Assembly (NCBI GenBank): GCA_016715645.1
Contig: JADJZR010000008.1
Span: forward strand, 48,241-112,240
Direction of reading: 5' to 3'
Origin: Elusimicrobiota bacterium
GTDB taxonomy: Bacteria; Elusimicrobiota; Elusimicrobia; FEN-1173
Length of the DNA stretch: 64,000 bases
Made by a program: the position numbers and the translations under genes. Position 1 is the first letter of the stretch. Each line of letters starts with the position of its first letter. Below, one piece after another: positions 12,187-58,982 of the stretch. The notes below the pieces were generated by a model that made no database searches, was not told where the DNA came from, and worked only from the letters and a program-made list of their open reading frames with translations.

Positions 12187-12261
12187 ATGAAATTCAACGT
12201 CGCCGTCCTTGTCGAGAGCAGGGAGCCTAATGTCATCAAAGATTTTGAGAAACCACGATGA
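12187..12261 (+). pseudogene. 24-codon remnant of an MDR alcohol-dehydrogenase N-terminus (MKFNVAVLVESREPNVIKDFEKPR*)
   Basis: Close match to the N-terminus of the intact dehydrogenase at 13843 (MKFKAAVLVESRNPLVIEELE). It is terminated by TGA, which overlaps the ATG of the next gene. Confidence 0.5.
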
Positions 12262-27676: not shown

Positions 27677-28641
27677 TGTTCGAAGGGAATGGGATTAAAC
27701 GTTATCTGTCTCAGTCACACCCATTCCCTTGGCAAAAAAGAGGTTTGATATTTGAGCCCGTTGGCTTGGATTATTCGCACGGTAGCCATCCCTGCGCATT
27801 TCATTTAAAAGAGGATCTTTTCCTTATTGCATTCACCCGTCGGGATGCCCAACAACGATCTCACATCTTTTTGTCCCACGCCACGGTTTCTGAAGGTCGG
27901 GTCGTGTTGCATGGAAATCCAACGCTCGCCTTGCGTCCTGGAAATACCGGTTGCTTTGATTGCGATGGGGTCATCAGTGTCTGTTTTGTGGCCCATCAGG
28001 GGCAAACGTATTTGTATTTTGTAGGTTGGCAAAATCTTCCGGAGGGCATGTGGATATGCGACACGGGTCGGGCACGGCTCGATTTCAATCAGCTCACGTT
28101 AACGAAAGAGTTTCCAGGTCCCGTGCTTGGTCGCGATAAATCAAATCCGCTTTTCGCCGCCGCCACAGCTTTCCACATAACGGAGGATGGTCTTTGGCAG
28201 ACGTGGTATAACTCCGGGATTAAATGGGAAAAGACTTCCCAAGGAATGAAGCCTATTTATGGGATCCATTACGCCCACTCATTAGATGGCATTGAATGGG
28301 TTTGTCACCCTGGTTTATGTTTGCCGTTTGCCGATGAATTTGAATATGCATTTGGGCGGCCAAGTGTGGTTAAAGTTGACGATACTTATTTCATGTGGTA
28401 TGCGCACCGTGCCTCGAGGAACATAGATAGTTATCGGATGGGATTTTCCTCTTCAACGGATGGACGTTATTGGTGTCGAAACGATCTCTTGGCAGGAATT
28501 GATGTTTCTGTATCGGGATGGGATAGTGAAATGATTTGTTATCCCTATGTGTTTAGCCATAAGGGATGGATGTATATGCTCTACAATGGAAACGGGTTTG
28601 GGAAAACGGGTTTTGGTTTAGCGGTGCTGGAGCCATCGTAA
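27673..28641 (+). CDS. Beta-propeller protein, glycoside-hydrolase/sialidase-like (GH43/GH130/BNR-type); function uncertain
   Basis: Repeated W/Y-rich blade-like segments and an Asp-box-like SSSTDGRYW. Assignment is by composition and pattern only. Confidence 0.3.
   Translation: MMFEGNGIKRYLSQSHPFPWQKRGLIFEPVGLDYSHGSHPCAFHLKEDLFLIAFTRRDAQQRSHIFLSHATVSEGRVVLHGNPTLALRPGNTGCFDCDGVISVCFVAHQGQTYLYFVGWQNLPEGMWICDTGRARLDFNQLTLTKEFPGPVLGRDKSNPLFAAATAFHITEDGLWQTWYNSGIKWEKTSQGMKPIYGIHYAHSLDGIEWVCHPGLCLPFADEFEYAFGRPSVVKVDDTYFMWYAHRASRNIDSYRMGFSSSTDGRYWCRNDLLAGIDVSVSGWDSEMICYPYVFSHKGWMYMLYNGNGFGKTGFGLAVLEPS

Positions 28642-36874: not shown

Positions 36875-36878
<4 letters not shown>
35628..36878 (+). 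CDS. Hypothetical protein (possible glycosyltransferase of the O-antigen-locus TIGR04372-like type); family not confidently recognised
   Basis: One N-terminal hydrophobic segment, 416 aa, no canonical motifs identified. Confidence 0.25.
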
Positions 36879-39952
<3,074 letters not shown>

Positions 39953-39956
<4 letters not shown>

Positions 39957-40741
39957 TCCTGGGTATCGTTCAGGCGAGGATGGGCTCTTCTCGTTTACCG
40001 GGAAAAACCCTCATGCCAATCGTCGGTCGTCCAATGTTGGAACTTCTTCTTGAACGTGTGAGACGTTCTCGCCTATTAAACCGGATCGTGGTGGCGACAA
40101 CTCAGGAACCGGAAGATCTCGCGATTGCGAACTTGTGTGAAAAGCTAGGGATAGGTTGTCAGAGGGGATCGACCCACGATGTGCTGGACCGATTTTACCA
40201 GGCTGCTCGTTTCTGCCACCCCTTGCATGTAGTCCGAATCACGGGAGATTGTCCCTTGATTGACCCGACTCTTATCGACGAAATGATTGAATTTTATATC
40301 CATGGAGAATTTGATTATGTGAGCAACGCCCTTATCCCATCGTTTCCAGACGGCCTCGACGCGGAAATCTTTCGTTTCGCTGTTCTTGAACGGGTTTGGA
40401 GGGAAGCCACTCTTACATCGGAACGGGAGCATGTGACCCCTTTAATTTACAAACATCCGGAGATCTTTCGCGTGAAAAATTATTCGAGCATTCAAGGTCT
40501 TTCTTCTTTGCGCTGGACGGTTGACGCACACGAAGATTTCCTTTTCGTCTCGCGCATTTTCGAGGCTCTTTATACTTTTAACGCCGCATTTGGTTATACG
40601 GATGTGTTGGATCTCCTCCACCGCCATCCGGAACTTTTGACTTTGAATGCTCGGTTTAGGCGAAACGAGGGTTATGCCCATTCTTTAGAAACAGATCTTC
40701 CCTTCCAAGGACAGGTTAACAAAGGAGGATTCAATGGTTAA
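39953..40741 (+). CDS. pseF: Cytidylyltransferase of the acylneuraminate-CMP-transferase/SpsF family (candidate CMP-pseudaminic acid synthetase)
   Basis: MILGIVQARMGSSRLPGKTL (ATGA overlap start). Co-located with pseB/C/G/H/I. Confidence 0.6.
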
Positions 40742-42026
40742 TCCTCACGAACAGTCACAAAATCTATTGAAACGAGCCCTGAAAGTTATTCCACTAGGGG
40801 CTCAAACCTTTAGCAAAAGCATCACGCAATATCCCCTTGGGATATCGCCCCATTTCGCGACACACGCCCGCGGAAGCAAGATATGGGATGTCGATGGAAA
40901 TGAATATATAGATTTCGTAAACGCCTTGGCCGCCGTTACCTTGGGGTATGGGGATCCTGACGTTATAAGGGCCGTGCAAGATCAGATGGAGAGGGGGAGC
41001 CTCTTTTCCCTTTCTCACCCCCTCGAAATCGATGTCGCGGAGGCTCTTGTTGAAATGGTCCCGTGTGCAGAAATGGTTCGGTTTGGGAAGAATGGGTCTG
41101 ACGTGACCACGGCCGCTGTGCGTTTGTCAAGAGCGTTTACCCAACGGGACCACGTGGCCCTTTGCGGATACCATGGGTGGCAGGACTGGTCCATTGGGAC
41201 GACCGCGCGGCGCAAAGGAGTTCCTGAACCGGTGAGTCGACTAAGTCATCCGTTCAATTACAATGACCTGGATTCGTTACATCATCTTTTTAATTCTTAT
41301 CCGGACCAAATCGCTGCCGTCATTCTTGAACCTATGAGTATCGAATTTCCCCGGGACGGTTTTTTACAGGGGGTAAGGGATCTTTGTAATCGACATAAGT
41401 CCGTTATGATATTTGACGAGGTGGTCACGGGCTTTCGCCTGGCCCGTGGAGGAGCCCAGGAACTGTTTGGGGTCACACCCGACTTGGCGTGTTTTGGGAA
41501 GGGGATGGCAAACGGGTTTCCCCTTTCTGCGATCGTTGGCCGTGAAGAGCTCATGCGGCTTCTCGAAGAAGTATTCTTTTCATTCACGTTTGGGGGCGAT
41601 GTATTGTCTTTGGCGGCCGCCCGAGCGACATTGAAGAAGGTACGGAATGAACCTGTCGTGGAGGAATTGGAGCGTCGCGGTCGGGTGGTAATGGAAGGCG
41701 CCCAGCGGCTATTGCAACAATTTAAAATGGAACAGTATATTTCTCTATCAGGACATCCATCATGGAGTTTTCTCCGGTTTCACAGCATAGAGGCAGTGGA
41801 TGAGTGGGAAATGAAAACGTTATTTTTGCAAGAAGTCTTCGCTCGTGGGGTTTTAACGATCGGCACACACAACATGAGTTACGCCCATACGCAGGGGGAC
41901 CTGGATCGGCTTCTAGCGGTCTATGCAGAGGTGTTTTCGGTGATCGCGGAGGCTGTCCGGTCCAACGGCGTGGCGAAGCGACTCCGCTGTGAGGCGCTGA
42001 AACCACTTTTCAAGTTGAGAGGATAA
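40734..42026 (+). CDS. Class III PLP aminotransferase (glutamate-1-semialdehyde aminomutase-like)
   Basis: Pattern resembling the GSA-aminomutase family: SKIWDVDGNEYIDFV, FDEVVTGFR, FGKGMANGFPLSA (a likely PLP-Lys region). Confidence 0.65.
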   Translation: MVNPHEQSQNLLKRALKVIPLGAQTFSKSITQYPLGISPHFATHARGSKIWDVDGNEYIDFVNALAAVTLGYGDPDVIRAVQDQMERGSLFSLSHPLEIDVAEALVEMVPCAEMVRFGKNGSDVTTAAVRLSRAFTQRDHVALCGYHGWQDWSIGTTARRKGVPEPVSRLSHPFNYNDLDSLHHLFNSYPDQIAAVILEPMSIEFPRDGFLQGVRDLCNRHKSVMIFDEVVTGFRLARGGAQELFGVTPDLACFGKGMANGFPLSAIVGREELMRLLEEVFFSFTFGGDVLSLAAARATLKKVRNEPVVEELERRGRVVMEGAQRLLQQFKMEQYISLSGHPSWSFLRFHSIEAVDEWEMKTLFLQEVFARGVLTIGTHNMSYAHTQGDLDRLLAVYAEVFSVIAEAVRSNGVAKRLRCEALKPLFKLRG

Positions 42027-42030
42027 ATCA

Positions 42031-43101
42031 ATGAAAGTGGTTATTCGTGTGGATGGTTCCCGTGCGATTGGGACGGGACATATCGTTCGTTGTCTGACAT
42101 TAGCAAAGGCCTTACGTTCAAAGGCCGCACAAGTCTCATTTATTGTTAACGATATGGAAAATAGATGGGCGAGATGGATATCAAGCGCTGGATACAAGGT
42201 GCATCGAATCTTAATTAATCCAGTGGCCAACTTTTCTTGGAAGCGTGACGCGGACCAAACACTCTGTTTCCTGGAAAGGCAAGGGTCTCTTTGGGACGTT
42301 TTAATCGTAGATCATTACGGATTGGATCAAAAATGGGAAAGGGCAGTTCGATATTCCACCCGAGTTCTCCTTGTCATTGATGATATTTGTGGGCGGTATC
42401 ATGATTGTGATATTCTCCTAAACACATCCGATTATCGGACAATTTCTCAAAGGTCCTCGCGGCGACGGGGAACAAGCCCCATTCTGTTAAGGGGGGGGGC
42501 GTATGCTCTTTTGGAGACAGATTTTTTGAAAGGACATAATCGGTTGAAAGAGAAGGAGGATCGACCTCCCAACACGGTCCATGTATTTTTTGGTGGGGTT
42601 GATGATCCTAATTACACTGAACGCTTTTCCCGGTGGGTCGCGACCTCTTTCCCCAATTTAAAACTCCAGATTGTGGTGAGTCGGTGGTACCCTCACATCC
42701 GTTCCCTGACAAGGCTTAAGAAGGATTTTAGGGGTTCTGTAAACTGGGCCAGAAATGTAAAGATGGCATTGCCTATGGCGAAATGTGACCTAGCTCTTGG
42801 TACGCCTGGGGCTACCACATGGGAAAGGGCTTGTCTTGGTCTGGCTCCGGCATACGTGTCTGTGGCGGAGAATCAGAAACCCATTCTTCGGCGTCTTCAG
42901 AACGATGGTTTGTGTTCTTATTTGGGTGAAGCCGGAAAATTAACTGAGGATGTTTTTTTGAAGCGTTTTTCTGCATTCCTGTCAGATCAATGCGGTCTCA
43001 CCCGCATGCGCCGGAATGGCATGTCCATGGTCGATGGGGACGGGGTTAGAAGAGTGGTCGAGACGGTATTCGCTAGGTTAAGGGAAGGCGGCCCAAGGTG
43101 A
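42031..43101 (+). CDS. pseG: UDP-2,4-diacetamido-2,4,6-trideoxy-beta-L-altropyranose hydrolase (PseG)
   Basis: MKVVIRVDGSRAIGTGHIVRCLTLAKAL is the PseG N-terminal signature. About 350 aa, GT-B fold. Confidence 0.7.
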   Translation: MKVVIRVDGSRAIGTGHIVRCLTLAKALRSKAAQVSFIVNDMENRWARWISSAGYKVHRILINPVANFSWKRDADQTLCFLERQGSLWDVLIVDHYGLDQKWERAVRYSTRVLLVIDDICGRYHDCDILLNTSDYRTISQRSSRRRGTSPILLRGGAYALLETDFLKGHNRLKEKEDRPPNTVHVFFGGVDDPNYTERFSRWVATSFPNLKLQIVVSRWYPHIRSLTRLKKDFRGSVNWARNVKMALPMAKCDLALGTPGATTWERACLGLAPAYVSVAENQKPILRRLQNDGLCSYLGEAGKLTEDVFLKRFSAFLSDQCGLTRMRRNGMSMVDGDGVRRVVETVFARLREGGPR

Positions 43102-43622
43102 ATCAGGGGATAAGACTTCAAGAATATAATTCGGCGTTTGATCGATCGACCGTGCGCTGGTTGAATTATCCCAGTGTTCGGCGAGGGTTTGGTCTAACTT
43201 ATCGGATATCTTTGTCGTCGCACCGTCAATGGAGGCGGGGGCAGAAAAATCTTCTGTTTTGGGGAATTTTGGATGAAAAGGGACGTCACCAGGGGAATGT
43301 TTTGGTTCATTGCAACCCTCGTCATCGAAGTGGTTATCTGCAGATGTATATTGGCAGCCCACGCAAAAGAGGGAAAGGTCTCGGACAAGGAGCTTTGGTG
43401 GCTGCGTTGGATGACCTATTTTTTCGAAGAGGATTCCATCGCGTTTGGTTGCATACGCTTTGTCGAAATTCCCGCGTTGAAAAATTTTACCGTAGACTGG
43501 GGTTTTCTTCCGAGGGGGTTGAAAGAGGGTCTTTTTTTCGTGCGGGTCGCTTTGAGGATCAACGCCGTTGGTCTATACTTGCCTCAGAATGGAGAAAAAA
43601 CCCAGGTCGCACGATACAATGA
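43098..43622 (+). CDS. pseH: GNAT N-acetyltransferase (PseH-like)
   Basis: 174 aa GNAT with RGKGLGQGAL motif A. It directly follows pseG with a GTGA overlap. Confidence 0.55.
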   Translation: MNQGIRLQEYNSAFDRSTVRWLNYPSVRRGFGLTYRISLSSHRQWRRGQKNLLFWGILDEKGRHQGNVLVHCNPRHRSGYLQMYIGSPRKRGKGLGQGALVAALDDLFFRRGFHRVWLHTLCRNSRVEKFYRRLGFSSEGVERGSFFRAGRFEDQRRWSILASEWRKNPGRTIQ

Positions 43623-44314
43623 TGTGTGTGATTATGCAACCAACATATTTTCCGTGGCCAGGGTATTTTAACCTGATCGCCTCGGCGGATGTGTTCGTTT
43701 TCTTGGATGACGTTGCGTATGAAAAAACCTCTTGGCAAAACAGGAACCGTGTTTTGGTGTCCGGGCGACCGCATTGGATCACCGTTCCTGCCCGACGCAT
43801 GTTTTTGGGACAACAGCTTCGGAACGTTGAAGTATCAGAAAACAATCGGTGGCGGGACAAGCATTTTCGATTGTTAAAAGAATCGTATGCGAGGCACCCA
43901 CACTACACGGACATGATGGACATCGTCTCGATACTGAGGGATGAATCGTTAAAATCCTTGGTGGATCTCAACACCAAAATCATTCGAACAGTGTGCGATC
44001 GATTGGGTCTTTTGGCTTCCTTTCGAAGTTCTGGGCAGATGGGAATTTTGGGGGACCGCTCGGAACGGTTGTCGAAAATTTGTGTGGCTCTCGGATGCGA
44101 CACTTATCTCAGTCCGATTGGAGCTAAAGAATACCTGGAAAATGATCATTTCAGTTCCACTGGATCGGTTCGTCTCCTTTTCCAGGATTATTCTCCTCAA
44201 TCCTATCCACAAATGGGATCGAAGAACTTTTTCGACCATCTCTCAATTTTGGACCTCATTGCCAACGTGGGATTTTCACATGCCGCGGCTTATGTGAAAA
44301 GTGGCGGTTCGTGA
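43619..44314 (+). CDS. WbqC-family protein (second copy)
   Basis: MMCVIMQPTYFPWPGYFNLIASADVFVFLDDVAYEKTSWQNRNRV is paralogous to the gene at 24398. Confidence 0.7.
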   Translation: MMCVIMQPTYFPWPGYFNLIASADVFVFLDDVAYEKTSWQNRNRVLVSGRPHWITVPARRMFLGQQLRNVEVSENNRWRDKHFRLLKESYARHPHYTDMMDIVSILRDESLKSLVDLNTKIIRTVCDRLGLLASFRSSGQMGILGDRSERLSKICVALGCDTYLSPIGAKEYLENDHFSSTGSVRLLFQDYSPQSYPQMGSKNFFDHLSILDLIANVGFSHAAAYVKSGGS

Positions 44315-44335
44315 CTTTAATTTTGGAGGATCATT

Positions 44336-45259
44336 GTGGAACACCAATACAAACTTGAAAAGGATCCGGTTTATGGTTTTTTCCGAGTTGTTCCATGCCC
44401 AAGTTCCAAAGAACTTCAGGAATACTACTCGCGTGAATTTTATTCAGCTCAATACTCAAATTGCAACGACTCCTCTATTGAAATTCAAGAAAAAGACAAA
44501 GAATTCTATCAAGGGCATTTTGAGGACATTTGCTGCGCTATTGAAGAAACCAGTCGAAGACCGTCAACGGGTCTCCGGGTTTTAGATATCGGGTGCGGGT
44601 GGGGCCAGGCTCTGTTGCATTTCAGGAAAAGAGGGATGCAGTGTGTAGGGTTGGACCCTGCCCCAGAGGCGGTTCGCTACGCTCGTGCCCAAGGCCTTGA
44701 GGTGTACGAATCCAATATGGGGGATGTATCTATACTGAATGAGCGGAAATTTGATGTTGTTTGTCTATTAAATGTTCTCGAACACCTTCCAGATCCGGGA
44801 TTGGTCCTTGAGACCATTCACGGAAAGCTCTTAGCAGAGGGCGGTTTACTAATCGTAGAGGTCCCAAATGAGTTTAACGCTTTTCAAGTGTGTGCTGATG
44901 AAGAGTTTCAATTGGCTCAATGGTGGGTGGCTCCGCCCGCCCATCTGAATTACTTTACTGTCGACACGTTGACATCTTTTATGGAGGGACATGGATTTTC
45001 GGTTCGCCTCAAAGAGGCGTCATTTCCAATGGAGATGTTTTTGCTGTTCGGCGAAAATTATGTCAAAAAAAACCGTCGCGGGCGAACGTGCCATAAAAAG
45101 AGGATGAATTTTGAACACCATCTGAGATCAACGGGACGAACGGATGTGCTTCGACGGTTCTATCGATCATTGGCCGAACAAAACTTGGGACGCCAAATCT
45201 TTGTTGTTGCTGAGCGAAGGCCATTGTTTGTCCGGGCACGCCGGCCCCCCATTCAATGA
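44336..45259 (+). CDS. Class I SAM-dependent methyltransferase
   Basis: VLDIGCGWGQALL motif I; LLNVLEHLPDP. Confidence 0.65.
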   Translation: MEHQYKLEKDPVYGFFRVVPCPSSKELQEYYSREFYSAQYSNCNDSSIEIQEKDKEFYQGHFEDICCAIEETSRRPSTGLRVLDIGCGWGQALLHFRKRGMQCVGLDPAPEAVRYARAQGLEVYESNMGDVSILNERKFDVVCLLNVLEHLPDPGLVLETIHGKLLAEGGLLIVEVPNEFNAFQVCADEEFQLAQWWVAPPAHLNYFTVDTLTSFMEGHGFSVRLKEASFPMEMFLLFGENYVKKNRRGRTCHKKRMNFEHHLRSTGRTDVLRRFYRSLAEQNLGRQIFVVAERRPLFVRARRPPIQ

Positions 45260-46551
45260 AAATAGAAAATTTGGGTGGGGCGACAGCTATCGTTACCCAT
45301 AAAGGGAAGCGCATCCTTTTTGACCCTTGGCTCAATGATGGGATATTCCATGGGGCCTGGTACCATTTTCCACCTCTTCAAAAAAAGATCGGAGATCTGG
45401 GACGGGTCGACTGGATCTTTATTTCCCACATCCATGAGGATCATTGTGCGGAAGGAACTCTTCGCTATATTAATAGGGATGCAGAGGTGATTCTGATGGA
45501 TCGTCAGCCCGATTATGTTGGACAATTTTTAAGTAATCGTGGATTTCGGTTCAAAAAAATTCATTGTGTTAAACCGTTTACTTCCAAACGAATAACTTCT
45601 CTTCTCTCAGTCGATATGATCCCGGCGGATCCCTCCCACACCTATAATTATTCCATTGATTCAGCCCTTGTCATGAAGTGGGATGGTTGGGTGATCTATA
45701 ATGCCAATGACTGCCCGCCTTATGACCAAGGGATGGCGTATTTGTCTGGAAGATATGGCCATGTGGACTTGGCTCTTTTGCCCTACACGGGGGGGTCCGG
45801 GTATCCAGCGTGTTACAGCAACCTTTCGGCGAACCAGAAACACAACGAGAAAAAACGTTTGCGTGAAGAAGGTGTGAAAAGTTTTCTCAGAACGGTTACC
45901 CAAATCGCCCCGACATTCGCGATGCCATTTGCGGATCAATATGTTGTCGCAGGTTCCCGTTCAATACTCAACCGTTTTTTGCCGCACCCCCCGTGTCCGG
46001 GCGACCTCCTTGAGCGCTATAATAAGGCCAACCTTGTTTCAAAGCTGCTCTTGTTAAATCCAGGGCAGGCTTTTGATCTAGGAACAGGTCGAAAAAATCC
46101 GCCGGGCGCTTATCGAGTTTACACGGAGAGTGATCGAAAAAAGCATATCTCATCGCTTAAAGGGAAAATCTATGATCATGAAAAAATAAATGTGAGCCGA
46201 TCGGTTCCTATCTCTCGGTTGCTGGCGTTGGCGAGGGAACATCTTTGGAAAAAGCAATTGACATCTAAATATTTTCCAAAATTCTCCTACCTAATTCATA
46301 TTTCGGATTGGGACCGATTATTCCTACTGGATTTACAAAAACCGTCTCCAATGGAGATCACGAACTCGATGAAAAAAGTTCAGATGGAACCCTATCTGCG
46401 TGTGAGTGTCTCAAGCACTCTTTTGCTTTTGCTCTTAGTTGGTCATGTGTCGTGGAACATCGCGGATGCCGCTCTTTTCCTGGACTATGAACGAGTCCCC
46501 AATCACTACGACCCCACTATTCATGAATTTCTTAATCACCTAAAAATATGA
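45256..46551 (+). CDS. MBL-fold metallo-hydrolase
   Basis: IFISHIHEDHC (HxHxDH Zn motif) after an N-terminal beta-lactamase-fold lead-in. Confidence 0.65.
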   Translation: MKIENLGGATAIVTHKGKRILFDPWLNDGIFHGAWYHFPPLQKKIGDLGRVDWIFISHIHEDHCAEGTLRYINRDAEVILMDRQPDYVGQFLSNRGFRFKKIHCVKPFTSKRITSLLSVDMIPADPSHTYNYSIDSALVMKWDGWVIYNANDCPPYDQGMAYLSGRYGHVDLALLPYTGGSGYPACYSNLSANQKHNEKKRLREEGVKSFLRTVTQIAPTFAMPFADQYVVAGSRSILNRFLPHPPCPGDLLERYNKANLVSKLLLLNPGQAFDLGTGRKNPPGAYRVYTESDRKKHISSLKGKIYDHEKINVSRSVPISRLLALAREHLWKKQLTSKYFPKFSYLIHISDWDRLFLLDLQKPSPMEITNSMKKVQMEPYLRVSVSSTLLLLLLVGHVSWNIADAALFLDYERVPNHYDPTIHEFLNHLKI

Positions 46552-47636
46552 TCCTTCGCGATATTCGCATTGGAAATCAATCCATCGGCGAAAACCATAT
46601 CCCCTGGATTGTGGCAGAAATGTCAGCCAACCACGGGCAATCGCTTGAACACGCTCTTAGCATTGTTGACGCAGCCGCAAAAGCCGGCGTTCAGGCTCTC
46701 AAACTCCAAACGTACAAAGCAGAGACGATGACATTGGATCTCTCCACCTCGGATTTTATGATTGAAGATCCTGGTAACATATGGAAAGGTCAATCTTTGT
46801 ATAACCTTTATCAAATGGCGCACTGTCCTTGGGAATGGCATGAGCCTATTTTCCGTCGGTGTCGTGCGCTTGGTCTGGTGGGTTTTAGTACTCCATTTGA
46901 TGTAACCGCCGTCGACTTTTTAGAAGATTTGGGGGTTCCTATGTATAAGGTGGCGTCTTTTGAGAACAACGATCTCCCATTAATACGAAAAATTGGAAAA
47001 ACCGGAAAACCCCTTATGTTGTCAACAGGAATGGCCACCCTGAACGAATTGGAGGAGGCTGTTTCGGCCGCCCGTGAAGCTGGTTGTGAAGACATTGTCC
47101 TCTTGAAATGTACCAGCGCATACCCCGCCCCAGCTGAGGAGGCCAACTTGGCGACCATTCCGGATCTGAAAGAAAGGTTTCAATGCCTCGTGGGGATTTC
47201 GGATCATTCGAATGGGATCGGGATTTCTATGGCCAGCGTGGCGCTCGGTGCTCGGGTCATTGAAAGACATTTCATCGACTCCCGTCTGAGCGGAGGACCG
47301 GACGCATCGTTTTCTCTTGAGCCAATGGAAATGCAACAATTGGTCGAAGAGTCCCAAAAAATTTTTTTGGCGCAGGGGAAAGTTTTTTATGGATCTACCC
47401 ACACCGAAATGAAATCCGCAAGGTATCGACGTTCCCTGTATATCACGGAACCCCTTAAAAAGGGCGATCGCTTGACACCCTATAACCTGAGATCTATACG
47501 TCCAGGCATGGGGCTTGCGCCAAAATATCTTGAAAAAGTTCTCGACCTCCCAGTCGAACGGGATGTGAGTAAGGGCACTCCTCTAACATGGGATATCGTT
47601 GGCGGAAAACCTCCTTCTATGAAAGGGGAGGCTTAA
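46548..47636 (+). CDS. pseI: Pseudaminic acid synthase (NeuB/PseI family, with C-terminal SAF domain)
   Basis: IGENHIPWIVAEMSANHGQSLEHALSIVDAAAKAGVQALKLQTY...GFSTPFD...KVASFENNDLPLI matches the NeuB family. It is assigned to Pse because of the flanking pseBCGH genes. Confidence 0.8.
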   Translation: MILRDIRIGNQSIGENHIPWIVAEMSANHGQSLEHALSIVDAAAKAGVQALKLQTYKAETMTLDLSTSDFMIEDPGNIWKGQSLYNLYQMAHCPWEWHEPIFRRCRALGLVGFSTPFDVTAVDFLEDLGVPMYKVASFENNDLPLIRKIGKTGKPLMLSTGMATLNELEEAVSAAREAGCEDIVLLKCTSAYPAPAEEANLATIPDLKERFQCLVGISDHSNGIGISMASVALGARVIERHFIDSRLSGGPDASFSLEPMEMQQLVEESQKIFLAQGKVFYGSTHTEMKSARYRRSLYITEPLKKGDRLTPYNLRSIRPGMGLAPKYLEKVLDLPVERDVSKGTPLTWDIVGGKPPSMKGEA

Positions 47637-49805: not shown

Positions 49806-50690
49806 ATGTGGTCAATGAAGGAACTTCTCAAAAGTGGATTTGAAAGGATGGGGTTGTTAGGGGCATTGCGAAAGGTAAAACGTCGGAGCCTTGTCTGGGC
49901 CGACCATTTGATTCATGGCCCCCTCTTTAAGAAAAGGCTAGCGGATGTGGTCGGAGATCGGGCAGCGATCCTCGATATTGGTTTTGGTCATTATGAGACG
50001 ATGGCGAAACCTTATTTGGCAGCCCGGGCTAAATCATATGTGGGGGTCGATTCAAACCCGGAATATGTCGCGAATGCCAAAGCGGCAATCGATTTGGGTT
50101 TCTTACCAGACAAGTGCCAATTCATTAACCGGCCAATCGAGGAATGTGCTTTTCCTGAACAGTCCTTCGATGTCATTTTTTCAAGCTCAGCTCTGGTGCT
50201 TATTCCCACTTACGCAGAGGTTATTCGGAATTGTGCGAATTGGATAAGTCCACAGGGGCGCCTTATCCTTTGTCTTGGAGCGCGCCACCCATCTAAGAAG
50301 AACAATGCCATACTGAGGGCCGCTTTCCGGTGTCTCCACCCATTCGCGAAACCGGCCGAGGTGCTGGAAGGAGTTAATGGCTGGCTGGACTGGAATCGCA
50401 AGGGCGCACGCGATGGTCAGTTTGGACACCTGCCTGGAAAGCGTATGATCCAAGAAGATGCGATCTTGACCGAAGTGGAGAAGTTCTTTTTCCTTTCGGA
50501 TTCATTCGGTTGTCGTCCCTTCATTGATATTATCACTAAAGACCTTAACGAACTGAGGCTCCTAGGCGCTGTCCTCGTGAAACCCATTGATTTTATTTTG
50601 AATATTACCGGGCTAATGGACCCAACCTACTTCACCTATGTGTTTCGACCTAAATTACCTAAGCCTGCCCATACGATTCCCTTTCCATGA
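49806..50690 (+). CDS. Class I SAM-dependent methyltransferase
   Basis: ILDIGFGHYE motif I; DVIFSSSALV. Confidence 0.5.
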   Translation: MWSMKELLKSGFERMGLLGALRKVKRRSLVWADHLIHGPLFKKRLADVVGDRAAILDIGFGHYETMAKPYLAARAKSYVGVDSNPEYVANAKAAIDLGFLPDKCQFINRPIEECAFPEQSFDVIFSSSALVLIPTYAEVIRNCANWISPQGRLILCLGARHPSKKNNAILRAAFRCLHPFAKPAEVLEGVNGWLDWNRKGARDGQFGHLPGKRMIQEDAILTEVEKFFFLSDSFGCRPFIDIITKDLNELRLLGAVLVKPIDFILNITGLMDPTYFTYVFRPKLPKPAHTIPFP

Positions 50691-50831
50691 AATCTGGTGT
50701 AGAGTCGATTTTCTATTGGAAAATTGTCGACATCGTAAATTCCGATATTTTGCTTTGTGTGTAATGGGTTTTCTCGATTGTGCGATTCTCAAATAATGTC
50801 ATGATTATGACCCTGTAATCCAGAGGAGTTC

Positions 50832-52676
50832 TTGGACCTCTATTTTGCATTCGATATTGATGCGCTGAAGAACTTCCGCCATTGTGCCAACCCAACCCGT
50901 GTTCGTTTCTTTGGAGGGCAATGGTCGGTGTTGGATTACCTCCAACAGAGTGGGCTCCCGTTAGTTGATGAGGGCAATCTTCTGGATGTGGACACGGCAT
51001 GCACCCTCAATAAATTTGCCCATGCCTGAGTTAGAGACTGGTACATTGACCTGGAAGGAAATGATTTTACATTGTTCCGCGGAATTTCTCTGGGAAAACT
51101 TTTTGAGACTCTCTTGGGTGTGCACCATTTTGTCCAACTCTACAAATTTGATCTGATCGGCCGCGTCTTAATTACCCGAGAGTGTCCTTCGGTTGTCTGG
51201 ACGGATCGAGGTTGTCCAGAACTTTTAACATTAATTTTGGACCAGATTCAGAGTGAGTCACGACCAAGGTTCATTTTATCTCAGCAGGAGGGGGCGGGCC
51301 CAAGCACAAGGGCCATGCCAGTTAAGGGCCATCGTACGCTCAAAATTTTTACTTCCCATAGAGTTAAGAATGTTGTGGAAAGCATCTTCCACAAGGTCTA
51401 TAACTACGGCGTAGGAATCCTGAAATTTATTCAGCCCCGTATTCAACGACGGGTGATGGTTTCTTATTTCCATACGCTGTCCGGGTTGTTTGAGGCTTTG
51501 TTGTCTCCGCGCTGGCGTAAAGAATTTCACGTGACGCTTATTCAGAGGCCTGGGAAAAAAATAGTAGGTCGGTGTTTTCGAACCGGCTGGCCCATCTTGC
51601 AGTCCGATGTTTCGGGAGAAATAGCCAATTGCCCGCCGGCGCTAACCGTGGTCGATAAGACTCGCCTCCGCGAAATTCGGTCCCGTTGGGAGGAACTCAA
51701 TAAATCGTTAGACTACCGTCAGCGATTTATTTTTCGGGAAAAACCGCCCTGGAAAGCATTGGAAAATGTATTGGAAGAAGAGTTTTTCGAGCGATTGGAT
51801 CACACGGCCAATTGGCTGGCTTTCCTTGAAAATTATTTCACAAGGAATCGGTTGGGCGCGGTCATTCTCGCCGACGATTCCTTGCCAGTCTCTTTGTCAG
51901 TCGTTGTCGTCGCACGACGTTTTGGCGTTCCCAGTTTTGTTGTCCTTCATGGTTTGCTCAGTGACAATCAAAATCAAGGCATGCTCTATGGTGCTGGCGC
52001 AGACCACGTGGCTGTGTCCGGACCTGAAATCCGTTCGCAATTCGACGTTTCATCCAAGGGGGGGGAAAGGGTCTTAGTTAATAGTAGCCCTCTCTTCGAT
52101 CGATATGCGGCTCGGCAACATTCGTTTTCTCCTTCTACGGGTTTGGTTCGGCGTGTTTTGGCGCTGACCCATCCCTTCGACTTTGGCAACACACTCTCTT
52201 GTGTCGGTGATTCAGAGAGACATGTGTTGACGGTTGCGCGTTTATTGTCTGGGTTCCAAGAGGTAACAGGGACGATTAAGCTGCATCCCTCGGAGAATTT
52301 GGACTATTACCTGAAATTGATGAAGGGATTTCCGGGGATCAAGGTGGTTAAAAAAGGGGACATTGATAGATTCATCCTTGCCCACGATTTTGTTCTGGCC
52401 ACAACATCAACGGTATTGTTACAGGCAGCTTTGCTGGGGAGGAGAATTGTCTATGTTAACTTTTCGCGAGCAAATTACGATGATCCATTCAGAGAGGGAT
52501 GGGGGTTCCCTGTCGCTCGGACTCCAAGCGATTTGGAGAAAATTCTTCGGCGGGAGTTCTCTTCGGATCCTGGTCCCGCGCCGGATTACTCCGCTCTCAT
52601 TCAGGGTTTTGCTGGAAGAATCGATGGGGACGGCGCTAGACGATTTCTCGAAAAAGTGCGAAGCACTGTTCAATGA
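50832..52676 (+). CDS. GT-B-like hypothetical protein (putative glycosyl/pseudaminyl transferase) interrupted by one in-frame TGA at 51027-51029; alternatively a shorter gene starting at TTG 51072
   Basis: ORFs 50832..51029 and 51072..52676 share a frame and are separated only by the TGA. The C-terminal region (ILAHDFVLATTSTVLLQAALLGRRIVYVN) resembles a GT-B C-domain. Confidence 0.4.
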
Positions 52677-53716
52677 CTGACTTCAAGCGATTGCGGGTCG
52701 GGTATGTCCCCTACAGTCAATCCTTGGACTCCCCGGGGGACCGTCGCCGGTTCGTTTTCTATGCTGGACGGCGAGGGATTCCGTTTGAAGTAGCGGACCC
52801 ATCGAAGAAATATGATGTTGTCGTGGCGAGCGGGAACGCGGACCTGAGCCTGTGGACCCGTTACCAAGGATCGCCACTATTTTTCGATTACATCGATTCT
52901 TATTTCGCTGTTCCCTGTTTGAGCGTTCGTGGTCTTTTGCGCGGGGTGGCTCATTTTTCAACGGGTCGCAGCCGATGGCTTCAGTTGATCCATCGAAAAT
53001 CCCTGGAACGAATGTTCCAGAGGGCCGATGCGGTCATATGCGCCACCACCGAACAACGTCAACAGGTCCTGCCATATTGCCGAAATGTCCACGCCATTCT
53101 GGATTCCCATGCCCTCTATCATTCCACTAAGACCGATTACTCCGCGGGAGATATTTTCCGTCTTGTATGGGAGGGACAACCTCAGAATGTGGAACATTTT
53201 GGAGTGATCGCCCGCGCCTTGAAATCGGTGGGAAAAGATCAAAAACTGGAATTGAATCTCGTGACAAACCCTCGGTATTTTCGTTTTCTGGGGAAGGTTT
53301 GGCCCCGAGACACCATGAGAGTCGCGCGTTCTTTCTTTAATTCGATCCACTTCCATCATTGGGATGAAATAACTTCTCCGTCCTTCATGACATCCTGCGA
53401 TATGGCTGTGATCCCCCTTCCTCTGGATGACCCCTTTAACGCAGGGAAACCCGAGAACAAACTTCTCATTTTTTGGAAGATGGGAATCCCGGCAATAGTG
53501 TCAGCCACTCCGGCCTATTCCCGAGCGATGAAGGCCGCAGGGTTGTCCATGGACTGTCGGACGACGGAAGAGTGGATTATTGCTTTGGAAAAATTCATTA
53601 AAAATGGAGAGCTTCGCCGTCAAGCAGGTATTCAAGGGAAGGCCTTTGTCGAAACCCATCACAATGATGAAATTCTTGTAACCCAATGGGACGCTCTTTT
53701 CTCCTCAATATTATGA
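52673..53716 (+). CDS. Hypothetical GT-B-like protein, paralog 1 of a tandem pair (candidate glycosyltransferase)
   Basis: About 35-40% identity to the next ORF over the full length. The C-terminal LIFWKMGIPAIVSATPAYSRAM resembles the GT-B donor-binding region. Confidence 0.35.
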   Translation: MTDFKRLRVGYVPYSQSLDSPGDRRRFVFYAGRRGIPFEVADPSKKYDVVVASGNADLSLWTRYQGSPLFFDYIDSYFAVPCLSVRGLLRGVAHFSTGRSRWLQLIHRKSLERMFQRADAVICATTEQRQQVLPYCRNVHAILDSHALYHSTKTDYSAGDIFRLVWEGQPQNVEHFGVIARALKSVGKDQKLELNLVTNPRYFRFLGKVWPRDTMRVARSFFNSIHFHHWDEITSPSFMTSCDMAVIPLPLDDPFNAGKPENKLLIFWKMGIPAIVSATPAYSRAMKAAGLSMDCRTTEEWIIALEKFIKNGELRRQAGIQGKAFVETHHNDEILVTQWDALFSSIL

Positions 53717-54765
53717 AGAATATTTCCCACCCTCTTCTGTTAGGATATGTTCCCTATGATTCCTCCCTGACCCATCCGGCGGATCGTCGTCGCTTTTGTC
53801 GCTATGCCCAACGGAAAGGGCTCACCTTTGAAATCGCTGACCCGAAGAAAGCCTATGATGTGGTGATCGTATCGGAAGGCGGTGACTTAAGTGTTTGGAG
53901 CCGCTATAGGAAAGGGAAAGTTATTTTCGATATGGTGAACGCCTACCTCGACGTTCCTTTAACAGAGATCAAGGGCCTGTTCCGTGGGGTGGCCAAGTAT
54001 GTGACGGGCCAATGCCAGCGTTTGACGGTGAGTTACTGGAAGGCGGTTCAAGAGATGTGTGGTCATGCAGGGGCCGTCGTTTGCGGTTCTCCTGAGCAAG
54101 CCGATCGAATTCGTTCTTTCCAGGCGAACGTCCACCCCATATTGGATTATCATGGGATGTACGATAAAGTGAAAGAAAACTACGAGTCAGGAAGTCCGTT
54201 TCGGTTGGTCTGGGAAGGACTTCCTCATAATGTGGAGTTTTTTAGTGAAATTCGCAAGGCGCTCCTCTCTTTGCATCAAAAATTTCCTCTGTCGTTGCAT
54301 GTCATCACCGCGCCTCAATCGAAGAAATATTTGCGAAAGTTTTGGACCGTCGAAACAAAAGACATCCTCCCATCTTTCCCATTTCCCACCGTCCTTCACC
54401 CCTGGGATGAACGAACCGTTTCCGATATCATTCGTTCCTGCGATCTTGCCCTGATCCCACTCCCTGCGGGGAGCCCGTTCAATACGCTCAAGCCCGAAAA
54501 CAAACTGTTGATATTTTGGCGAATGGGGATGCCCACCGTCACCTCCGCCATTCCGTCTTACGTCCGGGTCATGGGTGAAGCGGGCCTGTCCATGTTTTGC
54601 CGGAGCAGTGAGCAGTGGCAACAGACCCTGGAGAAATTTATCATCAGCACCTCCGCCCGTTCGGCAGCCGGGGAAAAAGGGAAGAGGTATTTGGAAAGTC
54701 ATTGTGGTGAAGCCGGATGGCTGGAAAAATGGGACGCGGTCTTTGAATCCATCGGAAAGGTATAG
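53713..54765 (+). CDS. Hypothetical GT-B-like protein, paralog 2 of the tandem pair
   Basis: ATGA overlap start at 53713 (MKNISHPLLLGYVPYD), collinear with paralog 1 (LLIFWRMGMPTVTSAIPSYVRVM). Confidence 0.35.
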   Translation: MKNISHPLLLGYVPYDSSLTHPADRRRFCRYAQRKGLTFEIADPKKAYDVVIVSEGGDLSVWSRYRKGKVIFDMVNAYLDVPLTEIKGLFRGVAKYVTGQCQRLTVSYWKAVQEMCGHAGAVVCGSPEQADRIRSFQANVHPILDYHGMYDKVKENYESGSPFRLVWEGLPHNVEFFSEIRKALLSLHQKFPLSLHVITAPQSKKYLRKFWTVETKDILPSFPFPTVLHPWDERTVSDIIRSCDLALIPLPAGSPFNTLKPENKLLIFWRMGMPTVTSAIPSYVRVMGEAGLSMFCRSSEQWQQTLEKFIISTSARSAAGEKGKRYLESHCGEAGWLEKWDAVFESIGKV

Positions 54766-54797
54766 CGAATCCTCCCGACCACCGCGTTTCCTCTCGC

Positions 54798-55142
54798 ATG
54801 GGAAAAGGGGAGATTCGTCAAAAGGATAAATGGGAATTGAGCCTGGGAATACCAACAGTGTCCGGACGTCGATGGATTTTCATTTTTCTCGTTGGGTGTG
54901 GGGTTGTCAATGCACAGGCGTACCCCGGGGATTTGGAACACACCCCGCCCCGACAATACGCCGCGGTGGTCGGGAAAGAAATTCAGAAAGTCAAATCGTC
55001 CGTCACGCTCTGCCTCTATCTTTTCAATCTGCAAACACAACGACACGATTCTCCCGTTTTACAATTAGCGGAATCCCTTCGAAAAGCCCATCACTCCGTT
55101 GTTCGCGTTGACGTGATCCTTGATCAAAATATTCCGGTTTAG
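54798..55142 (+). CDS. Hypothetical small protein with a predicted signal peptide; possibly a fragment of a gene disrupted by the downstream IS
   Basis: RRWIFIFLVGCGVVNAQA looks like a signal sequence. There is no family match. It sits in the 640-bp gap before the IS1634 remnant. Confidence 0.2.
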   Translation: MGKGEIRQKDKWELSLGIPTVSGRRWIFIFLVGCGVVNAQAYPGDLEHTPPRQYAAVVGKEIQKVKSSVTLCLYLFNLQTQRHDSPVLQLAESLRKAHHSVVRVDVILDQNIPV

Positions 55143-55405
55143 AGATTCAATTCGGCAACCCCGGATGGACGCTGCGCTGAAACTCATTGCCCAGAAAAAC
55201 CCCGACAATCCCCTGCGTTCCATCGCCTCCCTCATCGCGACAGTGAAGAATATGGAATGACGGACCCGACTTTGACAGATAAATTCAACTTTTGAGGGTC
55301 CCATCGTCGAAGGCGGGTTTTCAAAACCGAAAATGTAGTTACACGATTTTTATTTTTCTGTGATTTTCTATTGACGATATCGGTAAAAGTTAATGTAATG
55401 TTGCC

Positions 55406-56395
55406 ATGTTCGTCAGACTCAATCGCAACTCTCAGGGCAAAGCCTACCTCCAATTCGTCCGCAGTTATCGAGAGGGGGGCAAGGTCCGTCAACAGATTCT
55501 CTTGACGTTGGGTCGGTTGGATGTTCTTCAATCGACGGGGCAAATTGACAACCTCGTGGCGGCGTTGGGACGATACGCCACGAGGGAAAAGCTGGTGGAC
55601 CTGAGCAAAGACATCTCCGTTGATCAGGTCTATTTTCTGGGTGCGGCGCACGTGGTGAGCCGGATGATGGAACGGCTGAAACTGACGGCGATGTTTACCC
55701 GATTGAGGGCGAAGCATCCGAAGATGAAGTTGCCCTGGGTAGGGATTATCACCGGGATGATTGTGAGTCGATTTATCGCGCCGTGCTCGAAACGGCGGCT
55801 GAACATGGAACAGTGGGGGCGAATCTATCCCGGGATTTTGGAAATGGAGGCGCCGCCCCTGAAAAGTTTTTACCGAGCGATGGACGTGTTGTGGAAACAT
55901 CGGGAGGACGTTGAGGGAGCCCTGTTTGACCGCGGGGGCCAGCGGGATCTTTTCAACCGCGGGTTGGACGTCGTTTTTTACGATTTAACGACACTGCGTT
56001 TTGAAAGCACCAACGCGACGGACGGGGAACTTCGACGGTTCGGGTATTCAAAAGAACACTGGAGCGATTGCACACAAGTGATCCTGGGCTTGTTGGTGGA
56101 CCGGGACGGGGTGCCGGTGGGCTACGAACTTTTCCCGGGCAACACGTATGAACCTCACAGCTTGCCGAAGATTCTGGAGAAGATGAAAACGAAGTATCAC
56201 ATCGAACGCGTGATCGTGGTGGCAGATCGGGGGTTGGTGACGCAGGAGAACGTCGGGGAACTGAGCAAGAACGGGATGGATTTCATTCTGGGGATGAAAT
56301 TGTGGTCGATGTCGGAGGCCGATCAGGACCAAGAAAATCCGATAAAACCGTTCCTTAGAGGGAAAAGGAGACCCGCTGCTTCACCAAATTGGTGA
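55406..56395 (+). CDS. IS1634-family transposase, N-terminal ~60% only (truncated/disrupted)
   Basis: MFVRLNRNSQGKAYLQFVRSYREGGKVRQQILLTLGRL is the hallmark IS1634 N-terminus. The ORF ends prematurely where the IS1380-like element begins. Confidence 0.65.
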   Translation: MFVRLNRNSQGKAYLQFVRSYREGGKVRQQILLTLGRLDVLQSTGQIDNLVAALGRYATREKLVDLSKDISVDQVYFLGAAHVVSRMMERLKLTAMFTRLRAKHPKMKLPWVGIITGMIVSRFIAPCSKRRLNMEQWGRIYPGILEMEAPPLKSFYRAMDVLWKHREDVEGALFDRGGQRDLFNRGLDVVFYDLTTLRFESTNATDGELRRFGYSKEHWSDCTQVILGLLVDRDGVPVGYELFPGNTYEPHSLPKILEKMKTKYHIERVIVVADRGLVTQENVGELSKNGMDFILGMKLWSMSEADQDQENPIKPFLRGKRRPAASPNW

Positions 56396-56619
56396 AAAAT
56401 GAAGGGCTCTTTATAGGGGGCCCTGAAAGCGGGAATTCGTGTGGTTTTTTGGGGACCCCGGTAAAAGGTAAAGAGGTGGGGGCTCTCCCATGTGTGGGAG
56501 GGTGGGGTCTGAAGGGCCGCAAGAGGAGGAGGGGTGGGGGCACCTTGGCCAGCGGGAGAGGTCAAAATCAAATAAAATGCCTCGTCGAAAGACGGACATC
56601 TTCACGACGAGGCGAAACC

Positions 56620-57924
56620 ATGATAACACGTGTGCTTGAAAAATACAAAGTATCGATGACGAATCTAGCGGTGACGTCGTATGCGGGGTTGCCGCTGTTG
56701 TTGGGAATGGCGAAGAGCTTGGGTTTGGAAGAGAGGCTGAACGGTTTACCCGTGAAGGAAAGGGCGCGAGGCTATCGACCGGCGGAAACGATCTTCAGCT
56801 TAATGGGGTTGTTGCAATCGGGTGGAGTGGCGTTGGACGACATGGATCTGTTAAATGGCGACGAGGGATTGAGGGCGCTTCTAGGGAAATTCCCGGCGGC
56901 GAATACGGTGGGCGAATTGCTGAGACGGTTCGGGAATTCGGCGATACACCGGTTGGGTCAAATCCAATTGGAAACGGCGGTGAAGGTGATTCGATCGGCG
57001 GGGTTGAAATCGGTGGTTGTGGACGTGGACTCGTTTTTTGTTGAGTCACAGAAGTCGGATGCGGTGATGAACTATGAAGGGAAAACGGGATACAATCCCG
57101 TGGCGGTGACGTGCGCAGAGCTGAAGATGCCGATGGCGGGTTTGTTTCGTCCCGGGAACGCATCGGCGATGGCGAACGTGGCGGGCCTGTTGGAGCGAGT
57201 GTTGGAGGCGGTGAAAGGGATCGGCGTGCGAGTGCGAAGCGACAGTGCGGGTTTTCAGGCGGATGTGGTGCGGGTGTTGAGGGCGAAGGGGGCGCGGTTC
57301 ACGATTACGGCGCGCAAAGACGCGGCGGTTCTCGAGACGATCCGGGGGATAAAGCCAGAGTGTTGGCGTAAGTATGAGGGTGGGGCGTGGGAGAACCGGG
57401 AAACGGAGATTGCGCAGACGGTTCATGCGTTCGGGGCGGAGGATCTTGCGGCGCATCGAATGATTGTGATCCGATGGAAAAAAACGAATCCGGAATTGTT
57501 TGACAAAGAGCCCTATGAATATCATGCGGTGATCACGAACATGGATGACTGGTCGGGGGAAATGGTTCTTCAATTTCATCGAACACGCCAGGATGGATCG
57601 GAAAACGTGAACAAGGAATTGAAGGGTGGGATTGGTTTATCCAAGTTACCCTGTCGGGCGATGAAAGCGAACGCGGCGTATTTTCAGGTGGCTCTTCTGG
57701 CGTATACGGTGTTTGCGGCGACAAAACATTTGGCGTTGCCCAAGAGCTGGGGATCCTTGACGATCGAGACGGTGAGATCACGGCTGATTCGACTGGCGGG
57801 GGTCGTGGCGAAGAGGGCCCGGTATGTCTGGTTGAAGATCGGGAAGGGGTATCCGTATATGAAGTGTTTTGAGGACGCACGGTGGCGGATTATAGGGCTA
57901 TCGGTTGAAATAGCGACGGGATAG
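56620..57924 (+). CDS. IS1380-family DDE transposase
   Basis: ATG at 56620 (MITRVLEKYKV). YNPVAVTCAELKMPMAGLFRPGNASAMANVAGLLERVLEAVKGIGVRVRSDSAGFQADVV is an IS1380-like catalytic region. Confidence 0.65.
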   Translation: MITRVLEKYKVSMTNLAVTSYAGLPLLLGMAKSLGLEERLNGLPVKERARGYRPAETIFSLMGLLQSGGVALDDMDLLNGDEGLRALLGKFPAANTVGELLRRFGNSAIHRLGQIQLETAVKVIRSAGLKSVVVDVDSFFVESQKSDAVMNYEGKTGYNPVAVTCAELKMPMAGLFRPGNASAMANVAGLLERVLEAVKGIGVRVRSDSAGFQADVVRVLRAKGARFTITARKDAAVLETIRGIKPECWRKYEGGAWENRETEIAQTVHAFGAEDLAAHRMIVIRWKKTNPELFDKEPYEYHAVITNMDDWSGEMVLQFHRTRQDGSENVNKELKGGIGLSKLPCRAMKANAAYFQVALLAYTVFAATKHLALPKSWGSLTIETVRSRLIRLAGVVAKRARYVWLKIGKGYPYMKCFEDARWRIIGLSVEIATG

Positions 57925-58275: not shown

Positions 58276-58563
58276 ATGTCTCTCAAATATCGAAGCCGGT
58301 TTGGACGCGGGTGTTGGCAGGTTCAGGAGGCCAAGGCCCGGTTCAGCGAATTGTTTCGAAAAGCTCGGACCGAAGGTGTTCAGCGGGTGGCGCATCACGG
58401 GAAAGAGGCGGTGGTGGTGTTGTCGCAGGAAGAGTTTGATCGGCTTTGCCATCGAACAGCACGCAAAGAGGGGCTCGTTGAATTTATGGAGCGTTCGCCC
58501 TGGGCTGGACTGAAAACGGATCTCCATCGAACCAAAGACGATTTCCGGTCGGTGGACATATGA
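58276..58563 (+). CDS. vapB: Type II antitoxin (Phd/YefM-like), VapB partner
   Basis: WQVQEAKARFSELFRKA...GKEAVVVLSQEEFDRL is a Phd/YefM-type N-terminus. Its stop overlaps the vapC start (ATGA). Confidence 0.6.
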   Translation: MSLKYRSRFGRGCWQVQEAKARFSELFRKARTEGVQRVAHHGKEAVVVLSQEEFDRLCHRTARKEGLVEFMERSPWAGLKTDLHRTKDDFRSVDI

Positions 58564-58982
58564 GTGGATTTCTTTTGGACACGAATGTCCTTTCCGAGCT
58601 TGTGAAACCGAAACCCCACCCCCCTGTTGTTCGGTGGATTAACGATGCGGACGAAGACTCCCTCTATTTGAGCGTTCTGACGTTGGGTGAAATTCGAAAG
58701 GGTATTGCGGGTTTGCCCCAGGGACCCCGGAAATCTCATTTGGAAACATGGCTTCAACAGGACCTTCCGGATCGATTCCTGGGTCGCATTCTGCCGGTCA
58801 CGGAACGAATTGCAACCCGATGGGGGTTGATCACCGCTCCGTCACTGATGCACGGTAAGACGTTGCATGTAATTGATGGGCTCCTGGCGGCAACGGCCCT
58901 CGACCACAATCTTGTGTTCGTTACCAGAAACGTGAACGACGTGGCCCCCACCGGTGTCCCCTATCAAAACCCCTGGGGATAA
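58560..58982 (+). CDS. vapC: VapC PIN-domain ribonuclease toxin
   Basis: MSGFLLDTNVLSELVKPKP... contains the canonical PIN acidic residues (DTN, E, D...D). 140 aa. Confidence 0.85.
   Translation: MSGFLLDTNVLSELVKPKPHPPVVRWINDADEDSLYLSVLTLGEIRKGIAGLPQGPRKSHLETWLQQDLPDRFLGRILPVTERIATRWGLITAPSLMHGKTLHVIDGLLAATALDHNLVFVTRNVNDVAPTGVPYQNPWG

Follow-up and report, generated by a model that had tools for sequence, protein, structure and literature searches.

A candidate pseudaminic acid-derivative transferase gene with an in-frame stop codon and two GT4-like glycosyltransferase genes at the end of an Elusimicrobia glycan island

The window analysed here is a stretch of 64,000 nucleotides from an Elusimicrobiota bacterium (GenBank assembly GCA_016715645.1, contig JADJZR010000008.1, positions 48,241 to 112,240 of the forward strand). 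The genes in question are three same-strand open reading frames (ORFs), named A (51072-52676 as first seen), B and C in this report (Table 1). The stop codon of A overlaps the start codon of B in the sequence ATGA, and the stop codon of B overlaps the ATG of C at 53713 in the same manner; the three genes are therefore taken to be translationally coupled. They form the end of a lower-GC glycan island of about 40 kb, in which genes of a cytidine monophosphate (CMP)-pseudaminate-type pathway lie upstream on the same strand. The region thus reads as a coupled tail that closes a large surface-glycan island of an Elusimicrobia metagenome-assembled genome (MAG), probably encoding three GT-B glycosyltransferases (GTs) of two unrelated families. 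We consider it somewhat probable that A is a candidate transferase of a CMP-activated pseudaminic acid derivative, possibly inactivated in this genome, and that the products of B and C attach other sugars.

Gene A is longer than annotated and contains an internal stop codon. Word-indexed homolog searches, with the single sequence or with a profile, returned nothing except gene A itself, and an exhaustive HMMER search with A returned 887 cluster representatives at E <= 0.001, 125 of them at E <= 1e-10. Most of these homologs are about 600 residues long, and their residue ~80 aligns with residue 1 of the 534-residue ORF, because the reading frame of A extends upstream past an in-frame TGA. Upstream, this frame can be followed as far as a TTG at 50832; the sequence that it encodes there, MDLYFAF..., fits the N-terminal consensus of the family. 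A profile of the first 77 columns of the A family, built without any window sequence, matched a single one of the window's 1,828 six-frame peptides, namely the peptide at 50811-51026 (E 4.3e-5). Two homologs, P0122 and P0123, align collinearly across the stop codon. The initial annotation, which was made from the sequence alone, had placed the start of the first gene at 51072; the length of the homologs, the open frame and the profile match displace that start. The GenBank annotation gives a 433-residue product with an internal start.

In this assembly, gene A has either lost its function recently or contains one wrongly called base. A recoded TGA was rejected, as homologs have Leu, Ala or Ser at this position and TGA is an ordinary stop codon here, terminating 15 of the 20 island genes. 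If the TGA were a minority variant, or an error of the assembly or consensus, the gene would be intact and functional in the organism. Such an error would be consistent with the origin of the sequence from a MAG, with a single stop codon in an otherwise collinear alignment, and with the retention of all family-invariant residues downstream of the stop. It appears rather unlikely to us, considering the normal use of TGA and the ongoing gene loss at this end of the island, where the adjoining phospholipase D (PLD) gene is clearly decayed and insertion sequence (IS) transposases flank the locus. With a decayed PLD gene and IS elements next door, real decay of gene A is plausible.

The predicted structure of A has a GT-B fold, with UDP-N-acetylglucosamine (UDP-GlcNAc) 2-epimerases and TagF/TarL as the nearest known structures. 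Two motifs are invariant in 40 A-family members, H293-G294 in the N-domain and H405-P406 in the C-domain, the latter within KLHPxE. The His-Pro pair aligns with the His-Pro of KpsC, a transferase that uses CMP-Kdo (Kdo, 3-deoxy-D-manno-oct-2-ulosonic acid). Among the same 40 members, 38 match NF046086 (BFO_1060 family glycosyltransferase; best 1e-22) and 38 match TIGR04396, in every case under the cut-off, and 22 match TIGR04326. Gene A has no Pfam match; weak matches to Epimerase_2 (PF02350) and to Glyphos_transf occur in 14/40 and 12/40 of its relatives, respectively. The alignment of the A-family profile to UDP-GlcNAc 2-epimerase in the Protein Data Bank (PDB) is weak and limited to the C-terminal half. 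A phmmer search of two A-family members against the PDB, aimed at a residue-level alignment to TagF/TarL, gave no useful match, and MAF_flag10 (PF01973) matched neither A, B and C nor the members of the A and B families. The A-family members that were looked up are annotated as 'hypothetical' in public records. Judged from these profile similarities, the A family appears to be remotely related to the nonulosonic-acid transferases Tanf_01245/BFO_1060 of Tannerella forsythia.

To evaluate the genomic company of A homologs, 26 distinct A-family loci, including 16 metagenome loci, were inspected. A locus was counted as positive when a gene for NeuB and/or for a CMP-sugar synthetase (CTP_transf_3) was found within 10 kb. 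This was observed at 15 of the 26 loci, and at 10 of the 14 loci that are at least 10 kb long, versus 3 of 80 loci for the B family (Fisher p 7e-9 and 3e-8, respectively). The A homolog comes directly after NeuB in locus L083 and directly after CTP_transf_3 in L086 and L081, and it lies within 10 kb of NeuB/CTP_transf_3 in L087-L090, L093-L095, L100, L104-L106 and L110. The homolog in L083, P0123, begins at the stop codon of NeuB inside a complete cluster of the pseudaminic acid (Pse) type, and P0126 comes after CTP_transf_3. P0130, P0131, P0133, P0135 and P0140 are located at most 10 kb from NeuB and/or CTP_transf_3, in Pse-like and legionaminic acid (Leg)-like clusters; P0135 (L090, 10001-12637) is fused to a methyltransferase. 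Downstream of the closest homolog of A (34% identity) come a CTP_transf_3 gene and a gene for a DegT aminotransferase. In the window itself, pseI lies 3.2 kb upstream of gene A on the same strand, and its product scores 453.8 bits against a cut-off of 340. PseB and PseG are likewise above their NCBIfam cut-offs and PseC is 1.8 bits under, which confirms the position downstream of Pse genes given in the initial annotation.

Genes for S-adenosylmethionine (SAM)-dependent methyltransferases flank the A homologs in L085, L086, L088 and L089, which hints at a coupled methylation step. A 612-residue protein encoded directly after the A homolog in L083 (11867-13705) belongs to no Pfam family and may be another partner. 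This protein and a 351-residue PF13524 protein of L088 were considered as A-like or B-like candidates, and BLASTP supported neither assignment.

B and C can be aligned without gaps at 46% identity over 340 residues (E 1e-114), and the description of the two as collinear paralogs is borne out. The N- and C-terminal motifs quoted for them, GYVPY..P.DRRRF and ENKLLIFW.MG.P, are present and are invariant or near-invariant in 38 B-family members. The two genes are neither recent duplicates nor nearest relatives of one another, since the score against B is higher for 152 of 195 relatives than for C. A confident AlphaFold model of B, predicted with 38 sequences, shows a GT-B fold (predicted local distance difference test score 93.4, predicted template modelling score 0.90). 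Its best PDB matches are the GT4 enzymes BA1558 (2jjm), BshA, PimA, PglA, MshA and TarM, with Foldseek E values of ~1e-9 and template modelling scores of 0.6-0.67. Through its identity to B, gene C is predicted to encode a GT-B, GT4-like enzyme as well. Structure prediction, one of the checks that the initial annotation had suggested, thus gave GT-B folds for A and B. The C-terminal architecture that A was said to share with the pair holds at the level of the fold but not of the sequence, as A has no BLASTP match to B or C at E 1e-3 and the hhalign profile-profile probability is 4%.

The search with B found at least 719 homologs, which are typically 45-50% identical across very distant lineages and occur in genomes as different as those of the archaeon Methanoperedens, Polaromonas, Acidobacteriota, Prochlorococcus and Saccharimonadales. 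The protein sequence of B is the same as that of a 'hypothetical protein' from an Elusimicrobia MAG, and the family is annotated as 'hypothetical' or as a generic 'glycosyltransferase' in public records. The Pfam matches of both proteins to Glyco_trans_1_2/1_4 are sub-threshold (14.9 bits versus 25 for B, 16.5 bits versus 27 for C), and in NCBIfam only sub-threshold matches to group-1 glycosyltransferases were found. PF13692 (Glyco_trans_1_4) is matched at E <= 0.01 by 17 of 38 B relatives, none of which reaches an NCBIfam family. It had been stated that none of the three proteins matches a named family. This is correct at curated thresholds, but weaker matches do exist, to Glyco_trans_1_2/1_4 for B and C and to TIGR04396 and the BFO_1060 family for A. 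A related metagenome contig (L107) has orthologs of B and C at 71% and 72% identity followed by an intact PLD-family gene, of which only a remnant is left in the window; the order B-C-PLD is kept at 71-73%.

For the B family, the surroundings were examined at 80 genome loci spread over many phyla, with as much as 10 kb of flanking sequence per side. Two of these loci have a NeuB homolog, and one has a homolog of the island's cytidylyltransferase. The recurrent neighbours are short-chain dehydrogenase/reductase (SDR) enzymes (66 loci), an AsnB-like amidotransferase just downstream (53), an RfbC-like cupin (47), a C-methyltransferase (44), a GT4 enzyme (43) and RfbF (37), and the family is single-copy in 80/80 loci. 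The gene usually sits between a GT2 or methyltransferase gene and the AsnB-like amidotransferase gene, with CDP-sugar genes (RfbF, cupin, C-methyltransferase) nearby, an arrangement that looks like a conserved uncharacterised glycan module. A search of the window for these partners gave no RfbF, AsnB or RfbC-like match, the cupin at 16135 being of the WbuC type. Apart from SDR genes and DegT-type aminotransferase genes (20737, 33749, 36875), it returned nothing but a distant C-methyltransferase.

It had been suggested from the gene order that the three proteins, with the tandem pair highlighted, are the transferases that place the Pse sugars. The co-occurrence with nonulosonate genes, also suggested as a check, agrees with this for the family of the first gene but not for that of the pair. 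That B and C are pseudaminyl transferases of a new Pse-specific family seems highly improbable to us. They share an operon tail with the Pse genes and have ATGA-coupled starts; this, the GT-B fold and the lack of a curated family at threshold are all compatible with that role. On the other side, no more than 3 of 80 loci have a NeuB or CMP-sugar synthetase homolog near the B-family gene, which indicates that the family is not a dedicated pseudaminyl-transferase family. The conserved neighbours are those of the module described above (AsnB-like amidotransferase, RfbF, RfbC-like cupin, C-methyltransferase and SDR enzymes), the His-Pro motif is absent from the family, and the structural neighbours of B are GT4 enzymes acting on nucleoside diphosphate (NDP)-sugars.

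We propose that A most likely transfers a modified pseudaminic acid, the product of the upstream genes, from its CMP-activated form to a growing glycan. The invariant H405-P406 of the C-domain would bind the CMP phosphate, and the invariant H293-G294 of the N-domain would act near the acceptor; B and C would most likely extend the same glycan with two further NDP-activated sugars. Several observations weigh against this proposal. With its stop codon, gene A may do nothing in this organism, and the sugar could then be placed by another transferase of the island, for example the GT2 at 24865 or the TIGR04372 GT at 35628. Neither NeuB nor a cytidylyltransferase is present at 11 of the 26 A-family loci, including a 17.7-kb Elusimicrobiota locus (L109); it should be mentioned that several of the negative loci are short contigs or weak matches (19-25% identity). 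A itself scores 24.5 bits against NF046086 (E 1.3e-5, cut-off 200) over residues 389-532 only, and 38 bits against TIGR04396 (cut-off 125) over the C-terminal domain only. The strict D/E-D/E-G motif is not conserved in the A family, A having D269-D270-S after an N-domain strand, in a column that is mostly Asp. For B and C, a clear EX7E motif is lacking in the family: by alignment inspection, E261 is invariant in GKPENKLL, and the residue eight positions on is Lys or Arg. Finally, the best structural matches of A are UDP-GlcNAc 2-epimerases, not transferases.

This last point favours the principal rival of a transferase role, in which A would be a nucleotide-sugar-modifying enzyme of the UDP-GlcNAc 2-epimerase/NeuC type, for example a hydrolysing epimerase in nonulosonate biosynthesis. 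Genomic logic argues against such a role: PseG is already encoded in the island, and loci of the Leg type have separate Epimerase_2 genes. The HMM similarity across the family is also to a transferase family, and we regard an epimerase or hydrolase as improbable. TarL and TagF are close structural neighbours of A as well, and together with the weak Glyphos_transf matches among its relatives they suggest a TagF-like phosphotransferase that would add a phospho-alditol or phospho-sugar from a CDP-activated donor instead of a nonulosonic acid. This is the least probable of the readings considered, as the cytidylyltransferases beside A homologs are of the CTP_transf_3 type and occur together with NeuB, and no genes for CDP-glycerol or CDP-ribitol synthesis were seen next to A homologs.

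The features of the locus are listed in Table 1. The island spans about 15-55 kb of the window, with a GC content of 0.44-0.51 compared with 0.53-0.66 in its flanks. Its PseH-like protein is an acetyltransferase, and a radical-SAM/SPASM enzyme and a TylF-type methyltransferase are also encoded within it. Farther upstream are more sugar-modifying genes, an ATP-binding cassette (ABC) exporter and the GT2 and TIGR04372 GT genes named above.

Table 1. Position of the features at and around the three-gene locus (window coordinates)
Feature	Position	Strand	Description
CMP-pseudaminate-type pathway	36875..47636	+	PseC, PseB, aldo-keto reductase, cytidylyltransferase, HemL-like aminotransferase, PseG, PseH-like, WbqC, methyltransferase, metallo-beta-lactamase (MBL)-fold protein, PseI
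SAM-dependent methyltransferase	49806..50690	+	Directly upstream of gene A
Gene A, full extent	50832..52676	+	614 codons, TTG start, one in-frame TGA at codon 66
In-frame TGA	51027..51029	+	Divides gene A into a 65-codon N-terminal piece and a 534-codon ORF
Gene B	52673..53716	+	347-residue predicted GT-B glycosyltransferase of a divergent GT4-like family
Gene C	53713..54765	+	350-residue deep paralog of B; ORF opens at 53686, homology starts at ATG 53713
PLD-family gene remnant	54879..55251	+	Residues 17-102 and 455-486 of a 491-residue protein left

The PLD-family protein is predicted to be secreted, and the internal deletion of its gene adjoins IS elements. DDE transposase genes are found at the downstream edge of the island (55406-57924), and another lies inside it on the minus strand (19437-20636). 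A scan of 50500-55500 for promoters and terminators gave results at chance level only. The island has two WbqC-like genes (24398-25093 and 43568-44314), and the presence of three DegT-type aminotransferase genes, at the positions given above, suggests more than one amino-sugar pathway. A module of a CTP_transf_3 cytidylyltransferase gene and a HemL-like class-III aminotransferase gene recurs with nonulosonate genes, at 39039-42026 in the window, 5056-7107 in L083, 4405-6479 in L088 and 242-3894 in L110. In L083 the two are one fused gene, and an aldo-keto reductase gene is often alongside.

A 620-residue ORF of the island (22564-24426) has no Pfam or NCBIfam match; it was compared with A, as was the TIGR04372 GT, and neither is A-like. 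A 322-residue ORF (27673-28641) has no Pfam match and a weak NCBIfam match to beta-1,2-mannobiose phosphorylase (E 3e-7, 30 versus 450 bits). Two genes with HATPase_c_4 (RecG-C-like) domains, at 73-1248 and 12258-13712, flank heptose- and transketolase-type sugar genes, and one of the two also has a Schlafen/AlbA_2 domain. At 58276-58982 there is a small gene pair that resembles, by eye, an antitoxin and a PIN-domain (VapC-like) toxin.

Very few examples are known of transferases that attach pseudaminic or legionaminic acids to non-flagellar glycans. Should its role be confirmed, such enzymes could be recognised in many uncultured lineages by the sequence of the A family, which would also supply intact homologs, among them the one that follows NeuB directly in L083. 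More tentatively, the family of ~600-residue proteins might be a distinct, widespread and unclassified GT family that serves environmental bacteria (Elusimicrobiota, Chloroflexota and others) as their general non-flagellar transferase of Pse and Leg derivatives. It might then use a TagF-like mechanism with two histidines, and its extra N-terminal domain might recognize the acceptor. The B/C family is of lesser weight; it is a GT4-like branch of high conservation for which no curated model exists, and its usual partners (AsnB-like and CDP-sugar genes) point to a conserved glycan module of its own. For this genome the practical outcome is a corrected annotation, in which gene A is longer and has an internal stop, and in which A is the nonulosonate candidate. 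The three proteins had been assigned to an unrecognised family. Neither of the two families has a curated model at threshold, but both can be placed in known GT-B superfamilies, and a distant relative of A has been characterised; the result is useful for annotation and does not describe a new kind of system.

The closest characterised counterparts of A are the Tannerella forsythia transferases. BFO_1060 (strain 92A2) is the counterpart of Tanf_01245 and TFUB4_00887, Pse- and Leg-derivative transferases with genetic support (PMC5420450). Tanf_01245 is TagB-like, is genetically required for the transfer of Pse/Leg and has HP and D/E-D/E-G motifs (PMC5420450). The T. forsythia transferase genes are located just after the CMP-nonulosonic acid genes, in strain UB4 with only a methyltransferase gene between them (PMC5420450). 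Like these enzymes (NF046086), A is GT-B/TagB-like and has a His-Pro in its C-terminal domain, and as in UB4 its gene is downstream of the CMP-Pse genes with a methyltransferase gene between. In contrast, the A-family proteins have ~600 residues instead of 442-445, with ~200 extra residues at the N-terminus. They match the BFO_1060 type far under the cut-off and in the C-terminal half only, and the strict D/E-D/E-G is not conserved among them.

The 'surface carbohydrate biosynthesis proteins' TIGR04396 and TIGR04326 resemble the A family in sub-threshold HMM similarity and in a similar gene-cluster setting; they differ in that A-family scores are under their cut-offs, and they are themselves uncharacterised. 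A full-text literature search returned a single paper, in which 'surface carbohydrate biosynthesis protein' occurs as a phrase, and no paper citing TIGR04396 or TIGR04326. Compared to TagF/TarL and KpsC, GT-B enzymes with CDP or CMP donors, A has no significant sequence match to TagF/TarL, and the substrates of those enzymes are other ones. The UDP-GlcNAc 2-epimerases and NeuC (Epimerase_2) share with A the best structural match and a weak C-terminal sequence match; however, A has no match to the Pfam family, and its N-terminal half, the catalytic one in the epimerases, cannot be aligned to them by sequence. B and C are closest to the retaining GT4 glycosyltransferases BshA, PimA, PglA, MshA and TarM, as seen from the model of B and from the Glyco_trans_1_4 matches among its relatives. 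They differ from GT4 in scores under the Pfam gathering thresholds, in the apparent replacement of the EX7E region by an invariant GKPENKLL..W, and in an N-terminus with the unusual motif GYVPY..PGDRRRF.

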